A DNA stretch of 39,692 bases from a virus, in the IMG/VR virus record IMGVR_UViG_3300045988_124394; one strand, 5' to 3'. A program made the translations under genes and the position numbers. This document shows positions 1,609 through 36,512 of the stretch, one piece after another. Every line of letters starts with the position of its first letter. Positions within the stretch are counted from its first letter, which is position 1. The notes beneath the pieces were generated by a model, which saw only the letters and a list, made by a program, of their open reading frames with translations, was not told where the DNA came from and made no database searches.

Positions 1609-2604
1609 TTGCCATGTGGAAATCTGGAGAGGAGCGGGATGGATATTCTTGCAGATAAAGGAAAGAAATTCTACGTGAATAGATATATCATGTGCTTTCA
1701 TGCAAGACGATATTGGGAGTATCTAGTGAAAAGCGGATTATACGAACTGGTGACAGAACTTTGTAATGGATATTGGTGGGGCGAACTTTCGATACACTCT
1801 GCAAAGGCCAGAAATCTAAAAGAACTTTTAATGGTAGATGGAAATCGCGTAAATCGAATGAAACAGATCGATGGCGGAGTTAATGAATTAGAATGGCTGC
1901 AATATGAGCAGAAGCAGGGGATTAAGATCTCCAAGGAAAGCTTGGAGTGGCTGTCAAAGAAAAAAATGACCTTATCAGAATGCAAAGAAATCTTGAATGA
2001 TTTAGGAAGTGTCAACAAAATGGTTAACTATTTAAAAAAACAAAAAATAGCACCAAGCAAGGTGATCACAACCTGGAGAGATTACCTCCGAATGGCACTC
2101 TTAGAAGGATACGACACACGAGATAGCATAGTTCGCTTTCCGAAAGACTTAAAACTTCGCCATGATCAGTTGGCAGAACGTAGAAATGAAAAGGAAAATA
2201 AAGAAAGACTAAACAAATATGCAGAAATAGATAAGCAGATACAGGAACGCCTGCCAGAAGTAAGGAGATATTTCTACGAAGATGATACATACATGATTAT
2301 TCCGGCCGGTAAATGCAAGGAGCTGATGAAAGAAGGAAGAGAACTTCATCATTGTGTAGGAGCAAGTGATTTCTACATGAAGAAAATGGCAGCAGGAGAA
2401 ACATGGATCCTATTTCTTCGCAAGAAAGAAGATTTAGAAAAAGCATATTACACAGTGGAAATTAACCTAAAAACAGATAAGATCATACAGTTTTATTCAG
2501 AATTTGATAGACAGCCAGATAAAAAAGTAATTGGGAAGTTATTGAACAAATACACAAAAAGACTTAAAACGATGAAAGAACCAATCATGGCAGCGGCAGT
2601 ATAG
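1609..2604 (+). CDS. PcfJ-like domain protein
   Basis: C-terminal ..ELMKEGRELHHCVGASDFYMKKMAAGETWILFLRKKED.. fits the PcfJ-like signature. The start is uncertain: TTG 1609, or ATG 1639 behind GGAGAGGAG. Confidence 0.6.
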   Translation: MPCGNLERSGMDILADKGKKFYVNRYIMCFHARRYWEYLVKSGLYELVTELCNGYWWGELSIHSAKARNLKELLMVDGNRVNRMKQIDGGVNELEWLQYEQKQGIKISKESLEWLSKKKMTLSECKEILNDLGSVNKMVNYLKKQKIAPSKVITTWRDYLRMALLEGYDTRDSIVRFPKDLKLRHDQLAERRNEKENKERLNKYAEIDKQIQERLPEVRRYFYEDDTYMIIPAGKCKELMKEGRELHHCVGASDFYMKKMAAGETWILFLRKKEDLEKAYYTVEINLKTDKIIQFYSEFDRQPDKKVIGKLLNKYTKRLKTMKEPIMAAAV

Positions 2605-2612
2605 GAGGCAAT

Positions 2613-3797
2613 ATGGAATATAAACAAATGACACTCGCAGAGTGGCTAGATATCAAACAGAAATTAAAACAGGATATCTCGTCCGCAAAGGACAAGCTAA
2701 ACGGATTGAAGAAAGATTTTGTCCGTATCGGCTATCTCTTGCGCAAAATAGATGATAACGAATTATACAAGCAAGATGGCTATAAAAGTATCGCAGAATT
2801 TGCGAAAGCAGAATGTGGCTTATCTCCGTCAGATACAACAAGATTCATTCAGATAAACAAAAAATATTCCATAGGCGGCAATTCTGAAGAACTCCGGCCG
2901 GAATTTTTAGAGTATGGCCAAAGTAAGCTTGCAGCCATGTTAGCTCTTCCTGATGCCGACTTAAACATGATCACTCCGCAGACGAGCCGAGAGGACATTA
3001 GAGAATTAAACCGTTTTAACAAGTCAGATCCGGAACAGGGAGCGGATGACGACATAGAGCAACTTATCAGAGACTTCTATGTGTCACAAGAACTTGTAAG
3101 AAAAGCGGTAACGGTAAAAGACGATCCCAAAGCCTTATGCGAATTAATTGCTCCAAGTGGAAGCCGCTCTTTCCGGAAGGGCATCTGGTTTATCCTATTT
3201 CATGAGAACAAGATAAATATCAAAAAATACTCCGGGGTAGCAAAAGAAATATCCTGGGAAGAGTTTACAAAGATAACGGCTAAGGTCCTAGAAAAATATG
3301 AACCAGATGATGCAACACGGGAGGAAAACACAGATGGATTTAAGGGAGATAGCAAAGACAATAAACAAGACAGCATCAGAAGTAGAGCAGATAATGAACG
3401 AAATAGTATTGGGAATGGAGGAAATGTCGGAAAGACAGAAGAGAACGAGAACATACCGAAGCCTCAGCAGAGTGAAACAGAACATGAAACCAATAACGAT
3501 ATCCCTGAACCCATCACAGAAAAGAACGTGGGATACCCAGAGAAACCAGAGGGAGAGAAGGAGCAGGAAAAGGAAATGATTGCGCCGGCGCAAAAACCGT
3601 CAAAAACCGCATTAATCCCAAGCAAGGAAGAGGTTTTAAAAGAGGATAAAGAGCTAATCGTTCGCTGGGATAAAATGAAATCCATGTCTATCTCAGAAGT
3701 AGCCGAATTATTACACTTGGGATACAAGAGCCACCATCTAACCTTTAACAGCATCACAGACGTAGAAAACTGGCTGAGTGAGGAAATGGAAAAATAG
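2613..3797 (+). CDS. Putative DNA-binding early protein (ParB/KorB-type HTH-like N-terminus, acidic low-complexity middle)
   Basis: SD TAGGAGG 5 nt upstream. ..YKSIAEFAKAECGLSPSDTTRFIQINKKY.. is HTH-like. Long D/E/K/N-rich segment at aa 230-330. Confidence 0.55.
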   Translation: MEYKQMTLAEWLDIKQKLKQDISSAKDKLNGLKKDFVRIGYLLRKIDDNELYKQDGYKSIAEFAKAECGLSPSDTTRFIQINKKYSIGGNSEELRPEFLEYGQSKLAAMLALPDADLNMITPQTSREDIRELNRFNKSDPEQGADDDIEQLIRDFYVSQELVRKAVTVKDDPKALCELIAPSGSRSFRKGIWFILFHENKINIKKYSGVAKEISWEEFTKITAKVLEKYEPDDATREENTDGFKGDSKDNKQDSIRSRADNERNSIGNGGNVGKTEENENIPKPQQSETEHETNNDIPEPITEKNVGYPEKPEGEKEQEKEMIAPAQKPSKTALIPSKEEVLKEDKELIVRWDKMKSMSISEVAELLHLGYKSHHLTFNSITDVENWLSEEMEK

Positions 3798-3908
3798 CTG
3801 GACACCCTCTAAGGGTTTACATATTACACGAAACTTATCAACGGTTCCATGGGAACTATATGCCATTGTTATTCCTCCGGAATAAATCCGGAGGAGGAAG
3901 GAGTCGAA

Positions 3909-4019
3909 ATGTTTTTGAACCCTAAGATTTTAAAAAAGTTATTAAAAGAAGCGTATAAGCATAGAACCCTTTATCTTGCCTGCAAAGCAGAAAGCTTATA
4001 TATAGCAGCAGGATACTGA
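3909..4019 (+). CDS. 36-codon ORF with very strong SD; either a leader ORF or the true N-terminus of 4023..4484 across an in-frame TGA
   Basis: GGAGGAGGAAGGAG then 6 nt then ATG 3909. Stop TGA 4017-4019 is in the same frame as, and 3 nt before, ATG 4023. Confidence 0.4.
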   Translation: MFLNPKILKKLLKEAYKHRTLYLACKAESLYIAAGY

Positions 4020-4022
4020 GAA

Positions 4023-4484
4023 ATGGAATTTTTAAAAGAATACATCCCCAAAGAAACATTAGGGGATATTGTAGCACTTTCAGGAATGCTTCCAGAAGAT
4101 GGACAGCGGTATCAAGTCTTAGAATCAGGTAATCAGTTAGAGACTGGATTGCCACTTGAAATAAAAAAATATGTGGATATGCGCCCAACAGAAGTGACAA
4201 ATTGGTTAACTGTTTCAAGCGCAAGCAGAATGTTGCGAGTATTGCAGGATGCATCTGGTGAAACCAAATTGTTAGATGATACATGCGTAAAAGCAGTAGA
4301 CAGTAGTTATTGCGAAACAGAGAAAGGAGAAACAGCTCCAGCAACCCCTACTTATAACGAATGGTCTGCTGTATGGGAAAATAATGTTGGTAAATTCAGA
4401 GTAATGCTTCACCGAATGGATGAAGACAAAGAGGGAGTATTAAAACAATTAGGAATGGTAGATCTGAGGAGGAATCCTGATTGA
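4023..4484 (+). CDS. Hypothetical early protein
   Basis: 153-aa ORF. Its stop overlaps the TTG start of the next gene (TTGA). Its own SD is weak (AGGA 10 nt upstream). Confidence 0.7.
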   Translation: MEFLKEYIPKETLGDIVALSGMLPEDGQRYQVLESGNQLETGLPLEIKKYVDMRPTEVTNWLTVSSASRMLRVLQDASGETKLLDDTCVKAVDSSYCETEKGETAPATPTYNEWSAVWENNVGKFRVMLHRMDEDKEGVLKQLGMVDLRRNPD

Positions 4485-32904: not shown

Positions 32905-33396
32905 TTAATTTTGTTGCGGTATAGGCTTTTTCATCAAAGCAAAAGCAATAAAACATAAAACAGATTGTATCATTACAAAATAGCAGTAAAGAGGAAACAG
33001 TACAGCAGAAACAGCATAAAGGATAGCCGCTGTTAAAGTTAGTCCTCTGCGGTATGCAAATAAAGCAGCAAAATTGAAAATTGTCGCGATAATTGCAACG
33101 ATAACATGGGGAACAACTAGAAAAGTTGCAATACCAGCACCAACTTTTTCAAATCCGGATGTACCACTCGTAGCGGTACTCCAATAAATAATACTATATA
33201 AAGAATATGCAAATCCCATAAGGTGAGAGATGAATAAACAAACCATAGCAGGCATATTACGTTTACCATCCGCATTTGTGTGGGAAGTTTTTTTCACAAT
33301 TTGTTTCTTATGTTCTACTGGACAGCCACAGTTTGGACAAGCTACGGCCCTGTCCGATATTTCCTTTCCACATTCTTCACATTTAATAAGTGCCAT
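32905..33396 (-). CDS. Zinc-ribbon plus four-TM membrane protein
   Basis: MALIKCEECGKEISDRAVACPNCGCP (CxxC..CxxC), then four hydrophobic segments. SD AAGGAGGAAAG lies inside the upstream gene. 14-nt overlap. Confidence 0.7.
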   Translation of the reverse strand: MALIKCEECGKEISDRAVACPNCGCPVEHKKQIVKKTSHTNADGKRNMPAMVCLFISHLMGFAYSLYSIIYWSTATSGTSGFEKVGAGIATFLVVPHVIVAIIATIFNFAALFAYRRGLTLTAAILYAVSAVLFPLYCYFVMIQSVLCFIAFALMKKPIPQQN

Positions 33397-34030
33397 ATCT
33401 TTCCTCCTTAGTTTTTATCAAATCTTCAAGTTTTTCTCTATCCCAAAGTAATACTTGATTGCTTTTAGCTAATTCTTTTGCAGATTTTGTAAAATGTTGA
33501 TTTGTCAAAACAACAGCAACATGACAGTTATAAAAGGTTCTTCCAGCAAAAGCCTCTTGGACAGCTTTATTTCCGATATCAGACGAATAGCATTTACACT
33601 GAATACCGTATTTAATACCATCCTTATATGCCAAAATATCAAGTCCTTGGTCCCCACTACCTTTTGTTACCTCTACATTATCATAACCATTTCGAGCTAG
33701 AAGTTCGGCACAATAATGTTCAAATGCATGTCCATCCATGTTGTCGAATGGCTGATTTAAATTGTAGTATGGTTCAGGCTCTGAGTGATATGAAGAATGA
33801 TGATAACGCTCAGAAGATGAAGAATAGTTCATAGAATGTTTGTTAGGCGAAATGATCCATTTACACCATGCTAGAACGGCACTGCAAGAGTCGATTATCC
33901 ATCCGATTCCGAAAAGTCCTATGGTAAAGAAATATAAAAATCCCATACCGATTTTTCCATCCATAAACTTATGAACTCCGAAAGGACCAAGAAATATAGT
34001 GACAAGCATTCGTGTTGTAGGTGATTTCAT
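33383..34030 (-). CDS. TM2-domain / Mrr-like (PD-(D/E)xK) restriction-endonuclease-domain fusion protein
   Basis: N-terminus ..IFLGPFGVHKFMDGKIGMGFLYFFTIGLFGIGWIID.. is a TM2 domain. C-terminus ..GSGDQGLDILAYKDGIKYGIQCKCYS..VGNKAVQEAF.. is the Mrr_cat D...QxK core. SD TAGGAGGA. Confidence 0.7.
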   Translation of the reverse strand: MKSPTTRMLVTIFLGPFGVHKFMDGKIGMGFLYFFTIGLFGIGWIIDSCSAVLAWCKWIISPNKHSMNYSSSSERYHHSSYHSEPEPYYNLNQPFDNMDGHAFEHYCAELLARNGYDNVEVTKGSGDQGLDILAYKDGIKYGIQCKCYSSDIGNKAVQEAFAGRTFYNCHVAVVLTNQHFTKSAKELAKSNQVLLWDREKLEDLIKTKEERYGTY

Positions 34031-34105: not shown

Positions 34106-34585
34106 TTATTCAATTCCATAATTCATATCCACAACTCCCAGTGGTTCAAAAAATATCATGTAATTATCTACTACAGTGTATTTCCCATATTTTAAGAGAT
34201 AGGCATCCAAAGCATCCTTTAAAAATGCTTCTGTAACATCCAGATGCTCTGCCATTTCGTGTAGATTCCTACAGCCATATTGATAAGCAGATAATATGCC
34301 AGATAAACCAATTTGTTTATTGTAAGCCCACATCCGGGCTTTTCGTTCTTGTTTTATATTCTCTATCTCTGTCTGATCTAAGATGTTTCCGGCACTGGTA
34401 TAATGATGTCCTAACTCTTCGGCAAGGACACAGGCTTTCTTTACCTGGGTGGGAATGTCCTTGCGAATTGCAATACATTTATCCCTGATCAGACCGTCAT
34501 GAGTGGAGAGAGATACTTCTTTTACTGCCAGACCTTCTTGATCGGCAGAATCTAAAAGTTGTTCATATGTCAAGTGAGACACCAC
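34106..34585 (-). CDS. ImmA/IrrE-family metallopeptidase-like protein
   Basis: ..CIAIRKDIP..KACVLAEELGHHYTS.. fits the COG2856/DUF955 layout. The motif reads EELGHH rather than canonical HExxH. Confidence 0.7.
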   Translation of the reverse strand: MVSHLTYEQLLDSADQEGLAVKEVSLSTHDGLIRDKCIAIRKDIPTQVKKACVLAEELGHHYTSAGNILDQTEIENIKQERKARMWAYNKQIGLSGILSAYQYGCRNLHEMAEHLDVTEAFLKDALDAYLLKYGKYTVVDNYMIFFEPLGVVDMNYGIE

Positions 34586-34604
34586 CTTCCCATGTAGCGA
34601 TTTG

Positions 34605-34829
34605 CTATAATCCTAGTTCCTTTAAAACTTCTTCCTGAGACATTGCAGGCTGATAATCAGGGTCACCAGAATGATATGCATTAAGAGCAGCGATTTCTTC
34701 TGGATCAGGAGTAACTTCTTCTACATTGTTAAGCAAAAATGCTGCCTGAATTAAATTCCAGACTTTCTCAGCATCTTCATCGCTCATGATAGTAACAGCA
34801 CCAAAGATTCTTTCTTTTACATTAGACAT
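34605..34829 (-). CDS. Small acidic protein downstream of the RelE-like toxin (candidate antitoxin)
   Basis: ATG 34829 begins 4 nt after the toxin stop codon (34834..34836). 74 aa, D/E-rich. Confidence 0.4.
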   Translation of the reverse strand: MSNVKERIFGAVTIMSDEDAEKVWNLIQAAFLLNNVEEVTPDPEEIAALNAYHSGDPDYQPAMSQEEVLKELGL

Positions 34830-34833
34830 ATAA

Positions 34834-35076
34834 TCACACTCCTTTATAAATCTGTCCGCGGTTACCAATATCAATAATATCAATGATAACACCATTTACA
34901 TCAAATAATACTCGAAAATTACCGACACGCAGGCGATAGCCGGAAGCTCCCTGCAACTTTTTAATATCGCCTTCTAAAGGTAATCTGGAGATGGCAGTCG
35001 TCAAACGTTTCTGTGTAGGCTTATCTTGCTTTTTTAGAAATTTAATAGCCTTTTTACCATAAATGATTTGAAACAA
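34834..35076 (-). CDS. RelE/ParE-family toxin
   Basis: 80 aa: ..AIKFLKKQDKPTQKRL..I..L..GDIKKLQGASGYRLRVGNFRVLFDVNG..I.IIDIGNRGQIY is the RelE/ParE fold signature. TTG start lies 6 nt after AAAGGAGA. Confidence 0.75.
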   Translation of the reverse strand: MFQIIYGKKAIKFLKKQDKPTQKRLTTAISRLPLEGDIKKLQGASGYRLRVGNFRVLFDVNGVIIDIIDIGNRGQIYKGV

Positions 35077-35091
35077 TAAAATTCTCCTTTC

Positions 35092-35634
35092 TTACTTCCA
35101 CAAACTATCATCATTCATAATATCTAAATCATTCTGTATCCCTTCTGGAGTCACTTCTATATCAGTACGCTGGTGGGCGGCAAGAAGTTCAGATTTTTTA
35201 GTTATATGCTCATCAATTAATCGTTCTATATTATAGTTCATGTCTTTGTAACAACGGTTAATCATACTCATAAAATCTTTACGATTGAAAACATACTTTT
35301 GTTTTGATTTTGTTTTGATTTCAACAGTTTCTGAATTTAAATTTATTTCATAGCCATATGATTCAAATAATTGTATATAGAGATTTGTTTGGCCTGAAAC
35401 TCGTTTCATTTCATTAGAAATTAATTTTACAGGGGGTTCCCAACCCATTAGATAGGCGGGAGATACGCCACTTAAAGTAGCAGCAGCCTCTATTTTGTCT
35501 GATGGTATATTAGTAATAATGTTGTTTTCGTATTTATATAATGTTTGCTTTGAGACATTGATTTTGTCTGCGAATTCTACTTGACTTAGTCCAAGTTGTA
35601 TACGTGCTTCTTTTATGCGCTCACCAACTGTCAT
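35092..35634 (-). CDS. XRE-family HTH repressor (CI/ImmR-like)
   Basis: MTVGERIKEARIQLGLSQVEFADKINVSKQTLYKYENN.. HTH_XRE plus a 110-aa C-terminal domain. Divergent from the cro-like gene. Confidence 0.8.
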   Translation of the reverse strand: MTVGERIKEARIQLGLSQVEFADKINVSKQTLYKYENNIITNIPSDKIEAAATLSGVSPAYLMGWEPPVKLISNEMKRVSGQTNLYIQLFESYGYEINLNSETVEIKTKSKQKYVFNRKDFMSMINRCYKDMNYNIERLIDEHITKKSELLAAHQRTDIEVTPEGIQNDLDIMNDDSLWK

Positions 35635-35682
35635 ATAGTGGTTCCTCCTTAAAAATAGTAACTTAATAATAGCACAAAAATG

Positions 35683-35711
35683 TTATAAAGGCAACAAAAA
35701 TATCTTGACAA
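35683..35711 (-). promoter_or_regulatory. Leftward (repressor operon) promoter
   Basis: The minus strand reads TTGTCA, 17 nt, TTATAA. Its -35 overlaps the -35 of the rightward promoter. Confidence 0.5.
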
Positions 35712-35732
35712 GTTACGAAAATGTGTTATACT
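35705..35732 (+). promoter_or_regulatory. Rightward early promoter
   Basis: TTGACA, 16 nt, TATACT, with TG extended -10 (TGTTATACT). Confidence 0.65.
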
Positions 35733-35765: not shown

Positions 35766-35966
35766 TTGATTAAAACAAATGAACTACGCGGAGTAATAGC
35801 AAAAAATGGGTATTCCCAATCAGATATTGCTAAAATGATAGGGATAACACCAAAAACATTTTATGAAAAAATGAAAATAGGTGTGTTTGGGAGCGATGAG
35901 ATTCAAGTAATGATTGATAACTTGAAAATAGAGGACCCGATTGCTATTTTTTTTGCACGAAAGTAA
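35766..35966 (+). CDS. Cro-like HTH regulator
   Basis: TTG start behind GGAGGTGA. ..GYSQSDIAKMIGITPKTFYEKM.. is an HTH. 66 aa. Confidence 0.65.
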   Translation: MIKTNELRGVIAKNGYSQSDIAKMIGITPKTFYEKMKIGVFGSDEIQVMIDNLKIEDPIAIFFARK

Positions 35967-36002: not shown

Positions 36003-36512
36003 GTGAGTAATTTAACAAGAAACACCATTACTTCAATGGAAGTAGCAGAAATGGTAGGAAAAGAACACAAAGAATTGCTTCGAGATATTCGGAGGTATGT
36101 AGCACAATTAGCCGAGAGCAAAATTGCGCTGGGCGATTTCTTCACAGAAGCCACATATAAAGATGCAAATAATCAAAATCGTCCATGCTTTCAGGTCACA
36201 AAGAAAGGCTGTGAGTTCATAGCTCATAAGCTGACTGGACAGAAAGGAACAGAATTTACTGCAAGATACATAAACCGTTTCCATGAAATGGAGGATGGTA
36301 AACTTCCGTGTCCTTTGAATCCGATTATTGCATCCAGTGTTGCAGAACTCGGTAGAGTCACAGATCGAATCATGACAAAGCAGGGTTCAGCACCGTATAA
36401 GATTGCAGAAGCATTCAAAAGAGAATGTGAACAGTTTGGCATTTCGTTGCCGGATGATTTTGTAAAAGTTCCAGAGTATGAGCAAATGAAATTATCACTG
36501 GAAGTAAATTGA
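36003..36512 (+). CDS. Rha-family phage regulatory protein (antirepressor-like)
   Basis: ..ITSMEVAEMVGKEHKELLRDIRRY..PCFQVTKKGCEFIAHKLTGQKG..FTARYINRFHEME is the Phage_pRha signature. GTG start behind AAGGAGG. Confidence 0.7.
   Translation: MSNLTRNTITSMEVAEMVGKEHKELLRDIRRYVAQLAESKIALGDFFTEATYKDANNQNRPCFQVTKKGCEFIAHKLTGQKGTEFTARYINRFHEMEDGKLPCPLNPIIASSVAELGRVTDRIMTKQGSAPYKIAEAFKRECEQFGISLPDDFVKVPEYEQMKLSLEVN

Follow-up and report, generated by a model that had tools for sequence, protein, structure and literature searches.

We analysed a stretch of 39,692 nucleotides (nt) from the virus record IMGVR_UViG_3300045988_124394 of IMG/VR, referred to throughout as the window, with attention to a pair of small genes, encoding a RelE/ParE-family toxin and an acidic protein, that lie between a phage repressor gene and the gene of an ImmA-like protease. 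Four open reading frames (ORFs) occupy positions 34106–35634 on the minus strand, where an initial annotation, made from the sequence alone, had placed them. Read leftwards, these encode an XRE helix-turn-helix (HTH) repressor of ImmR/CI-like type with 180 amino acids (aa) (35092–35634; Pfam HTH_3, 1.2e-13; PHROG 8 and 4, transcriptional repressor), the toxin, which has 80 aa and a TTG start (34834–35076; PF05016, phrog_1213), the acidic protein, which has 74 aa, an ATG start and belongs to a family without annotation (34605–34829), and an ImmA/IrrE-fold protein of 159 aa as counted from a GTG (34106–34585; phrog_87, metallo-protease, 7e-35). The toxin TTG stands exactly 15 nt past the repressor stop and the ATG of the 74-aa gene 4 nt past the toxin stop, as had also been noted. 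The ribosome-binding site of the toxin gene, AAAGGAG, lies at 35084–35090 (minus strand); that of the acidic protein is a direct repeat of it, located inside the final toxin codons (34839–34845, minus strand). The initial annotation had offered two readings of this arrangement, namely a toxin-first, HigBA-like pair in which the acidic protein is the antitoxin, and a prophage repressor that doubles as the antitoxin.

The 80-aa protein matches the Pfam model ParE_toxin (PF05016) with 28.2 bits (cut-off 23; E 2.8e-6) and the RelE-like toxin phrog_1213 at 4.6e-17, and has an isoelectric point (pI) of 10.3 and a charge of +9.5. Its start position is kept across homologues, of which there are 476, with TTG, ATG or GTG as the codon, and a median ratio of nonsynonymous to synonymous substitution rates (dN/dS) of 0.065 indicates purifying selection. 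The alignment of 16 diverse homologues contains two invariant motifs, RLRVG..R and a C-terminal GNRGQIYK; residues R48, R50, R55, R73, Y77 and K78 are unchanged in 16/16. When the profile built from these 16 sequences was searched against the PDB it matched aRelE (1wmi, 7.8e-10) and RelE3 (3bpq, 1.7e-6), together with ribosome-bound E. coli RelE (4v7k, 4e-4) and RelG (Rv2866). By these sequence comparisons the toxin belongs to the RelE branch of the RelE/ParE superfamily, and public records already know it as a RelE/ParE family toxin.

The charges of the two proteins are complementary, the 74-aa protein having a pI of 4.05 and a net charge of about −11.4 against the +9.5 of the toxin. Its 171 homologues are all labelled ‘hypothetical’ and all come from Lachnospiraceae, and the gene is under purifying selection, with a median dN/dS of 0.157. 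The numbers of homologues, the dN/dS values and the conserved toxin start together indicate that both are real genes rather than chance ORFs. The protein found no match in Pfam, NCBIfam, PHROGs or PADLOC, nor among PDB sequences, which were searched with the single sequence and with two profiles, and family searches detected no RHH, Phd, AbrB or HTH domain. The AlphaFold2 (AF2) model has four helices (predicted local distance difference test score, pLDDT, 78.8; predicted template modelling score, pTM, 0.39), and the protein is predicted to be all-helical and non-globular, a pTM of 0.39 being at odds with a compact fold; Foldseek found no fold match for the model in the PDB. A link to RelB was considered on account of weak C-terminal matches to DUF6290 and NF046040 RelB (E 0.015–0.2), but these involve distant relatives only and are reproduced by 0/32 close members, and they were not used.

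The 74-aa gene accompanies the toxin gene well beyond this prophage. Blautia wexlerae-type contigs have the 80-aa and 74-aa genes by themselves between divergent housekeeping genes, for a CN_hydrolase and an epimerase, and other Lachnospiraceae also carry the cassette between housekeeping genes; the pair likewise stands alone in nine further genomes (9 of 13 genome loci). The commonest toxin variant (85% identical; at least 2877 collection blocks) forms a solitary pair with its partner, flanked by the genes of a GntR regulator and a GH42 galactosidase, and a near-consensus promoter, TTGACG-17-TATAAT, is found about 70 nt upstream of this stand-alone cassette. The junction ATTTATAAAGGAGTGTGA-N4-6-ATG is conserved between the toxin and antitoxin genes. 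A survey of viral sequences seeded with the toxin recovered a partner for 35/35 intact toxin homologues; it is encoded downstream where the toxin is 62–100% identical to that of the window, and upstream, overlapping the toxin start, at 45–53% identity, the upstream partners being acidic proteins of 69–81 aa. Antitoxin-first is the canonical order of toxin-antitoxin genes. Aligned by hhalign, the downstream and upstream partner groups prove homologous along their entire length (Prob 94.3%, E 1e-7, 71 columns), and hence a single antitoxin family is used in both gene orders. So far as sequence searches reach, this family is unannotated, occurs in both orders and has no detectable relative.

Losses from the cassette are one-sided. 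Loci that retain the partner only, or a remnant of it, are frequent (at least 12; L010, L063, L066, L067–70 and L073–81), and no toxin-only locus was seen among those sampled. Two lineages, L010 and L066, have lost the toxin ORF through a precise deletion between the flanking AAAGGAG repeats (scars at L010:2935–3010 and L066:3950–4025, compared with 34827–35094 in the window), which leaves the order repressor-antitoxin-ImmA; the orphan antitoxin copies are intact, with dN/dS of 0.04–0.12. In-frame deletions in L073 and L075 have fused the N-terminal part of the toxin to the C-terminal part of the antitoxin. Universal partnership, the homology between partner groups and the one-sided losses all argue that the 74-aa protein is the antitoxin, and on this comparative evidence the pair forms a mobile cassette in toxin-first order that is autonomous and inherited together. 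The first of the two readings offered initially is thus borne out by linkage, by the conserved junction, by stand-alone occurrence and by homology to the upstream partners, and the comparative data favour what had been named there as an alternative outcome, an ordinary inserted toxin-antitoxin pair. The label ‘HigBA-like’ does not hold in the sense of protein family, since the antitoxin is without an HTH and the matches of the toxin are to RelE and not to HigB.

Two further observations concern the antitoxin family. A 63-aa acidic ORF (MSKEMLHGLIDMIPESDAETIYHVLLKF...; L013:4090–4281) lies directly past the antitoxin gene in Diplocloster agilis; its sequence is similar to the N-terminal half of the relatives encoded in antitoxin-first order, and it has neither a Pfam match nor an adjoining toxin. 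Four loci from Hadza gut metagenomes (L005–L008, about 2320–4300) hold a chromosomal remnant made up of an XRE gene, a DUF3644/EC042_2821 protein, a 65-aa antitoxin copy whose N-terminus is altered, and an ImmA stub of 27 codons; this appears to be an immunity module in decay, with a further kind of cargo gene.

The repressor, which the second of the initial readings had made the antitoxin, does not travel consistently with the toxin. At least six repressors with mutually unrelated DNA-binding domains precede near-identical blocks of toxin, antitoxin and ImmA genes (95–100%, 93–100% and 77–96% identical to the window, respectively); the three that were aligned over their full length are 30–34% identical to the repressor of the window. 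In D. agilis (L013) the cassette begins 17 nt after the gene of a 259-aa repressor whose C-terminus is S24/LexA-like, an assignment read by eye from the sequence rather than taken from a family search, and ImmA is missing. ImmA is encoded upstream of the cassette in L030/L031, and L039 has the order XRE-ImmA-antitoxin-toxin-integrase. Co-inheritance of toxin and Xre is therefore not what was found: Xre is swapped while the toxin stays constant, and the cassette occurs with an S24-type repressor, or without Xre or COG2856 altogether, which speaks against a repressor with a second role as antitoxin. Nor was the idea new, since Makarova et al. (2009; PMC2701414) predicted a three-component system in which an Xre antitoxin is cleaved by a COG2856 protease, freeing a RelE or PIN toxin.

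What does vary with ImmA is the C-terminal tail of the repressor (ELLAAHQRTDIEVTPEGIQNDLDIMNDDSLWK; 35095–35190, minus strand). This tail is conserved behind unrelated HTH domains, and its variants go with ImmA variants: the motif ..AAH.RTD.E.T.EG...D.DIM.DD..W. is present in the XRE genes of L010, L015, L022–L027, L057, L066, L080 and L097–L171, and a second type, AAHFDGxEYTEEELxEIxxFAEF, accompanies other ImmA variants. The tail is present where ImmA occurs without the toxin (L010, L066, L080) and absent from L013, which has the toxin and no ImmA. Because it tracks both the presence and the variants of ImmA, the tail appears to serve interaction with ImmA and not the toxin, and it is a candidate for the ImmA recognition or cleavage region; the covariation would be consistent with cleavage of the repressor by ImmA at induction. 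The repressor is, on the comparative evidence, not the antitoxin, and forms a separate switch with ImmA, probably through the conserved tail. A similarity between IEVTPEGI in the repressor tail and EEVTPDPEEI in the antitoxin was considered as a shared ImmA site and dropped, given that other tail variants are without the motif and that the Thr is not constant across the antitoxin family. Two independent in-frame fusions of an XRE HTH to a complete 74-aa domain were also seen, with no toxin nearby (L068:3752–4231 and L070; L069:1997–2446), the HTH of one of them being 77% identical to the N-terminus of the window's repressor; such fusions could function as orphan regulators or could have arisen by deletion.

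The ImmA-like protein scores 20.5 bits against PF06114, just below the cut-off of 22 bits, and the top Foldseek matches of its AF2 model (pLDDT 95.2) are IrrE (3dte, 3dti) and PprI (8sln). The HExxH zinc site is absent: the protein reads EELGH, residues 55–61 being A-E-E-L-G-H-H, with E56-E57-x-x-H60 encoded at 34406–34420 and E80, the expected third ligand, at 34346–34348 (both minus strand). The initial annotation had correctly noted this motif in place of the expected HExxH, and alignment of homologues shows it to be clade-wide, not an anomaly of this copy. Glu occupies the position of the first His in 145 of the 150 best representatives (50% clustering; P0121–P0270), and E57, H60 and E80 are about 97% conserved across these 150 and invariant in an alignment of 46 sequences. 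The motif is therefore not a lesion, and EExxH is, on the alignments, the signature of a large ImmA clade, one that is found in at least 592 viral contigs and might have a different metal preference. Our literature search returned no report of EExxH in ImmA proteins, and ‘EEXXH’ only in papers on the ZIP8 and ZIP14 transporters. Homologues of the ImmA-like protein begin MTYEQLL, and for this reason its translation probably starts at the TTG at 34573 and not at the GTG at 34585.

The position of the cassette was placed in context through a survey seeded with ImmA. At least 592 IMG/VR contigs contain an ImmA relative; the best 80 of these were taken (L096–L175), among which 72 unique XRE...ImmA loci were scored. 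The initial statement that repressor and protease are normally adjacent is correct for 41/72 loci (57%), while in the other 31/72 (43%) cargo lies between them. A DUF4258 toxin with an MqsA-like zinc-ribbon protein accounts for 14 instances of cargo, DUF4160 with DUF2442 for 5–6, Abi_2 for 3, and Fic and unclassified genes for 7, and RelE with the 74-aa antitoxin family occurs once (examples of slot cargo are L097:2391–2965, L114:2383–2979, L121:1847–2860 and L167:2135–2974). With 31 of the 72 loci carrying genes here, the gene-order comparison shows the slot to be a recurrent cargo hotspot, exemplified by the window. The exact HTH-toxin-74aa-M78 order also occurs in a second phage lineage, one that has a serine recombinase and is represented in 511 collection blocks. 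No description of cargo between repressor and ImmA, or of this cassette, was found in the literature, the nearest being the system of Makarova et al. (2009) and the co-regulators of pneumococcal ImmAR prophages; both the hotspot and the EExxH clade of ImmA appear to be undescribed in the searchable literature.

Taken together, we regard it as very probable that the window contains an autonomous RelE-type toxin-antitoxin cassette, the 74-aa protein being its antitoxin, inserted as cargo in the repressor operon. In mechanistic terms, a mobile type II cassette of two genes would have inserted, as a copy without its promoter, between the ImmR-like repressor and the ImmA/IrrE-fold protease. In the lysogen, cassette and repressor would share a transcript begun at the leftward promoter (about 35694–35666), since only 15 nt separate the repressor stop from the toxin start and neither a strong promoter-like site nor an evident terminator lies between repressor and ImmA. 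Translation of the antitoxin would be coupled to that of the toxin by way of the ribosome-binding site in the last toxin codons; the acidic protein would bind and neutralise the toxin, which in its free form would cleave ribosome-bound mRNA. The pay-off could be prophage addiction, in which loss of the prophage poisons the cell, or exclusion of other phages of the abortive-infection type, either of which would fit the other cargo found in the same slot.

Several observations weigh against this explanation. The 74-aa protein has no recognisable DNA-binding domain or structural relative, and a search upstream of the stand-alone cassettes produced no convincing operator-like inverted repeat, which leaves autoregulation of those cassettes unexplained. 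The divergences of toxin and antitoxin are correlated (Mantel r 0.89, p 5e-4, n = 21), but such a correlation is expected for any tightly linked genes, and ImmA correlates too in its small subset. The best 80 matches of the ImmA-seeded survey are not a random sample. The block of repressor tail, toxin, antitoxin and ImmA moves as a unit in several phage lineages and so leaves room for some functional coupling of the cassette to the ImmA switch, to which we would assign a chance between very small and slim. Finally, toxicity, neutralisation and binding, along with antitoxin lability, mRNA cleavage and the pay-off, are properties that we infer.

Alternative explanations concern either the activity of the toxin or the roles of its neighbours. 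On the first point, it is quite unlikely that the toxin is a ParE-type gyrase poison and not a RelE-type, ribosome-dependent mRNA endonuclease. Such a reading could appeal to the name of the only Pfam model matched, ParE_toxin, and to the label ‘RelE/ParE family toxin’ that NCBI gives to the homologues; PF05016, however, takes in both RelE and ParE, whereas the PDB profile search matched RelE-type structures only, with no ParE structure at E ≤ 0.1, and the invariant C-terminal R-G-Q-I-Y-K of the toxin aligns with the C-terminal R-G-R-A-Y-K of aRelE. On the second, the four genes could constitute a three-component system, with XRE as a (second) antitoxin and transcriptional controller and with ImmA cleavage at induction releasing the toxin. 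XRE, toxin and a COG2856-type protease do share one operon, here and in the lineage with the serine recombinase, the tail, toxin, antitoxin and ImmA are inherited as a single block, and COG2856-Xre proteins are statistically linked to RelE and PIN toxins (Makarova et al., PMC2701414). We nevertheless find this very improbable: a toxin that is 95–100% identical is found behind six repressors with unrelated HTH domains, as well as with an S24-type repressor, with ImmA upstream (L030/31) and with neither repressor nor ImmA; the tail persists without the toxin where ImmA exists (L010, L066, L080), and the toxin without the tail in L013; and the toxin already has a dedicated, co-inherited partner.

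Conversely, the 74-aa protein could mainly be a co-factor of the repressor/ImmA switch, such as a modulator of ImmA or a dimerisation module of the repressor, and only secondarily the partner of the toxin. In two lineages (L010, L066) intact, toxin-less copies that are under purifying selection lie between XRE and ImmA, which points in this direction, as do the two independent fusions with an XRE HTH (L068/L070, L069), and extra co-regulators in the lysogeny cluster have been reported from ImmAR-regulated pneumococcal prophages (PMC12637031). Most copies, however, belong to stand-alone pairs with no ImmA or XRE nearby, there are orphan copies without ImmA too (L063, L068), homologues serve as the upstream partners of related toxins in the classical antitoxin-first order, and the toxin-less forms arose by precise deletion of the toxin, all of which makes a primary role in the switch decidedly improbable. 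There is, lastly, a slim chance that the slot is a dedicated site for toxin-antitoxin and abortive-infection cargo and does more than tolerate insertions. Its cargo would be read from the lysogenic promoter, and cleavage of the repressor triggered by ImmA at induction would change that transcription; the 74-aa antitoxin would be labile and decay, leaving the RelE-type toxin to act at a set stage of the lytic switch, or ImmA might cleave the antitoxin as well. In either case the action of the toxin would be built into the programme of induction or of surveillance for prophage loss. An inserted, self-sufficient toxin-antitoxin pair remains the explanation that we prefer.

The surroundings of the four genes are those of the immunity and lysogeny-maintenance operon of a temperate Lachnospiraceae phage, as the gene content attests: a repressor operon, facing promoter-like sites, Cro-like and Rha genes, and an integrase. 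Two promoter-like sites face each other within a region of 130 nt. The leftward site (TTGCCT-17-TATTAT, with an extended TG; 35666–35694, minus strand) would drive the repressor operon, and the stronger, rightward site (TTGACA-16-TATACT, 11/12 matches; 35705–35732, plus strand) would serve a Cro-like HTH gene of 66 aa (35766–35966), divergent from the repressor, and a Rha gene (36003–36512), both on the plus strand. Beyond the ImmA-like gene lie a gene for a 215-aa protein in which a TM2 membrane domain at the N-terminus is combined with an Mrr_cat nuclease domain (33383–34030, minus strand; PADLOC: ZorD nuclease domain, PDC-S02), then, with an overlap of 14 nt, that of a zinc-ribbon membrane protein of 163 aa (32905–33396, minus strand), and then a tyrosine integrase; the two genes between ImmA and integrase are further cargo-like genes. 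The rest of the window consists of large, co-oriented plus-strand ORFs which, read without family searches, resemble the structural block of a siphovirus. Among cellular sequences, the closest match is to a metagenome-assembled genome assigned to Anaerobutyricum (L009). Compared with deposited phages by blastn, the ImmA gene alone found matches, in C. difficile and Paenibacillus phages, and Rfam gave zero matches across the whole window.

These results replace the unsupported idea of a phage repressor that doubles as an antitoxin with a more ordinary and testable one. They assign a role to the widespread ‘hypothetical’ acidic proteins of 70–80 aa in gut Lachnospiraceae, as partners of a very common RelE-type toxin, and they identify the repressor-ImmA junction of these prophages as a useful slot for mining prophage-borne defence or addiction genes. 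They also bring to notice a large ImmA clade in which EExxH replaces HExxH.

Among characterised toxin-antitoxin systems, the cassette is closest in its toxin to RelBE, as represented by the archaeal aRelE-aRelB of P. horikoshii (PHS013, 1wmi) and RelE3 of M. jannaschii (3bpq). The toxin profile matches these structures from end to end, aRelE, RelE3 and the toxin of the window have in common an RLRVGDYR core and, at the C-terminus, R..YK, and in both cases a small basic toxin is paired with a small, acidic, helical and non-globular partner. It differs from RelBE in gene order, the clade of the window being toxin-first whereas RelB, with its RHH N-terminus, is encoded upstream of the toxin, and in the 74-aa antitoxin, which has no detectable relation in sequence or fold to RelB or to any solved antitoxin. 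HigBA systems are toxin-first and have a toxin of the RelE superfamily. The order of toxin and antitoxin genes at the locus is therefore like that of HigBA; but HigA, whose gene follows that of the toxin, is an XRE-HTH protein, whereas the downstream protein here has no HTH by Pfam, NCBIfam or PHROG, the toxin matches no HigB- or Gp49-type model, and the XRE protein of the window is encoded upstream and is the phage repressor. In the cI-rexA-rexB operon of lambda, exclusion genes are co-transcribed with the repressor. By analogy, the window too would have potentially harmful cargo in a repressor operon, and so expressed in the lysogen; in this case, unlike rexAB, the cargo is a type II toxin-antitoxin pair and lies between repressor and protease.

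The switch itself is of a familiar kind, in that an XRE repressor is paired with a protease of COG2856/M78 fold, as in ImmR/ImmA of ICEBs1, DdrO/IrrE (PprI) of Deinococcus and CapH/CapP of CBASS (for CapH/CapP and IrrE/DdrO see 10.1101/2022.04.27.489752 and PMC6868357). The divergent lytic promoter-like site, the co-oriented protease gene and the location of the operon upstream of an integrase are further points in common with ImmR/ImmA-type switches, from which the window departs in having Glu for the first zinc-binding His of HExxH throughout its ImmA clade, and in the cargo that separates repressor from protease here and in 43% of related loci. The system predicted by Makarova et al. (2009; PMC2701414) unites the same three protein families in one operon, often in prophages. 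The prediction deals mostly with fused COG2856-Xre proteins, in which Xre was proposed as the antitoxin, and the genes of the window differ from these. Unlike the toxin of that system, the toxin described here has an antitoxin of its own, independent of Xre and COG2856.

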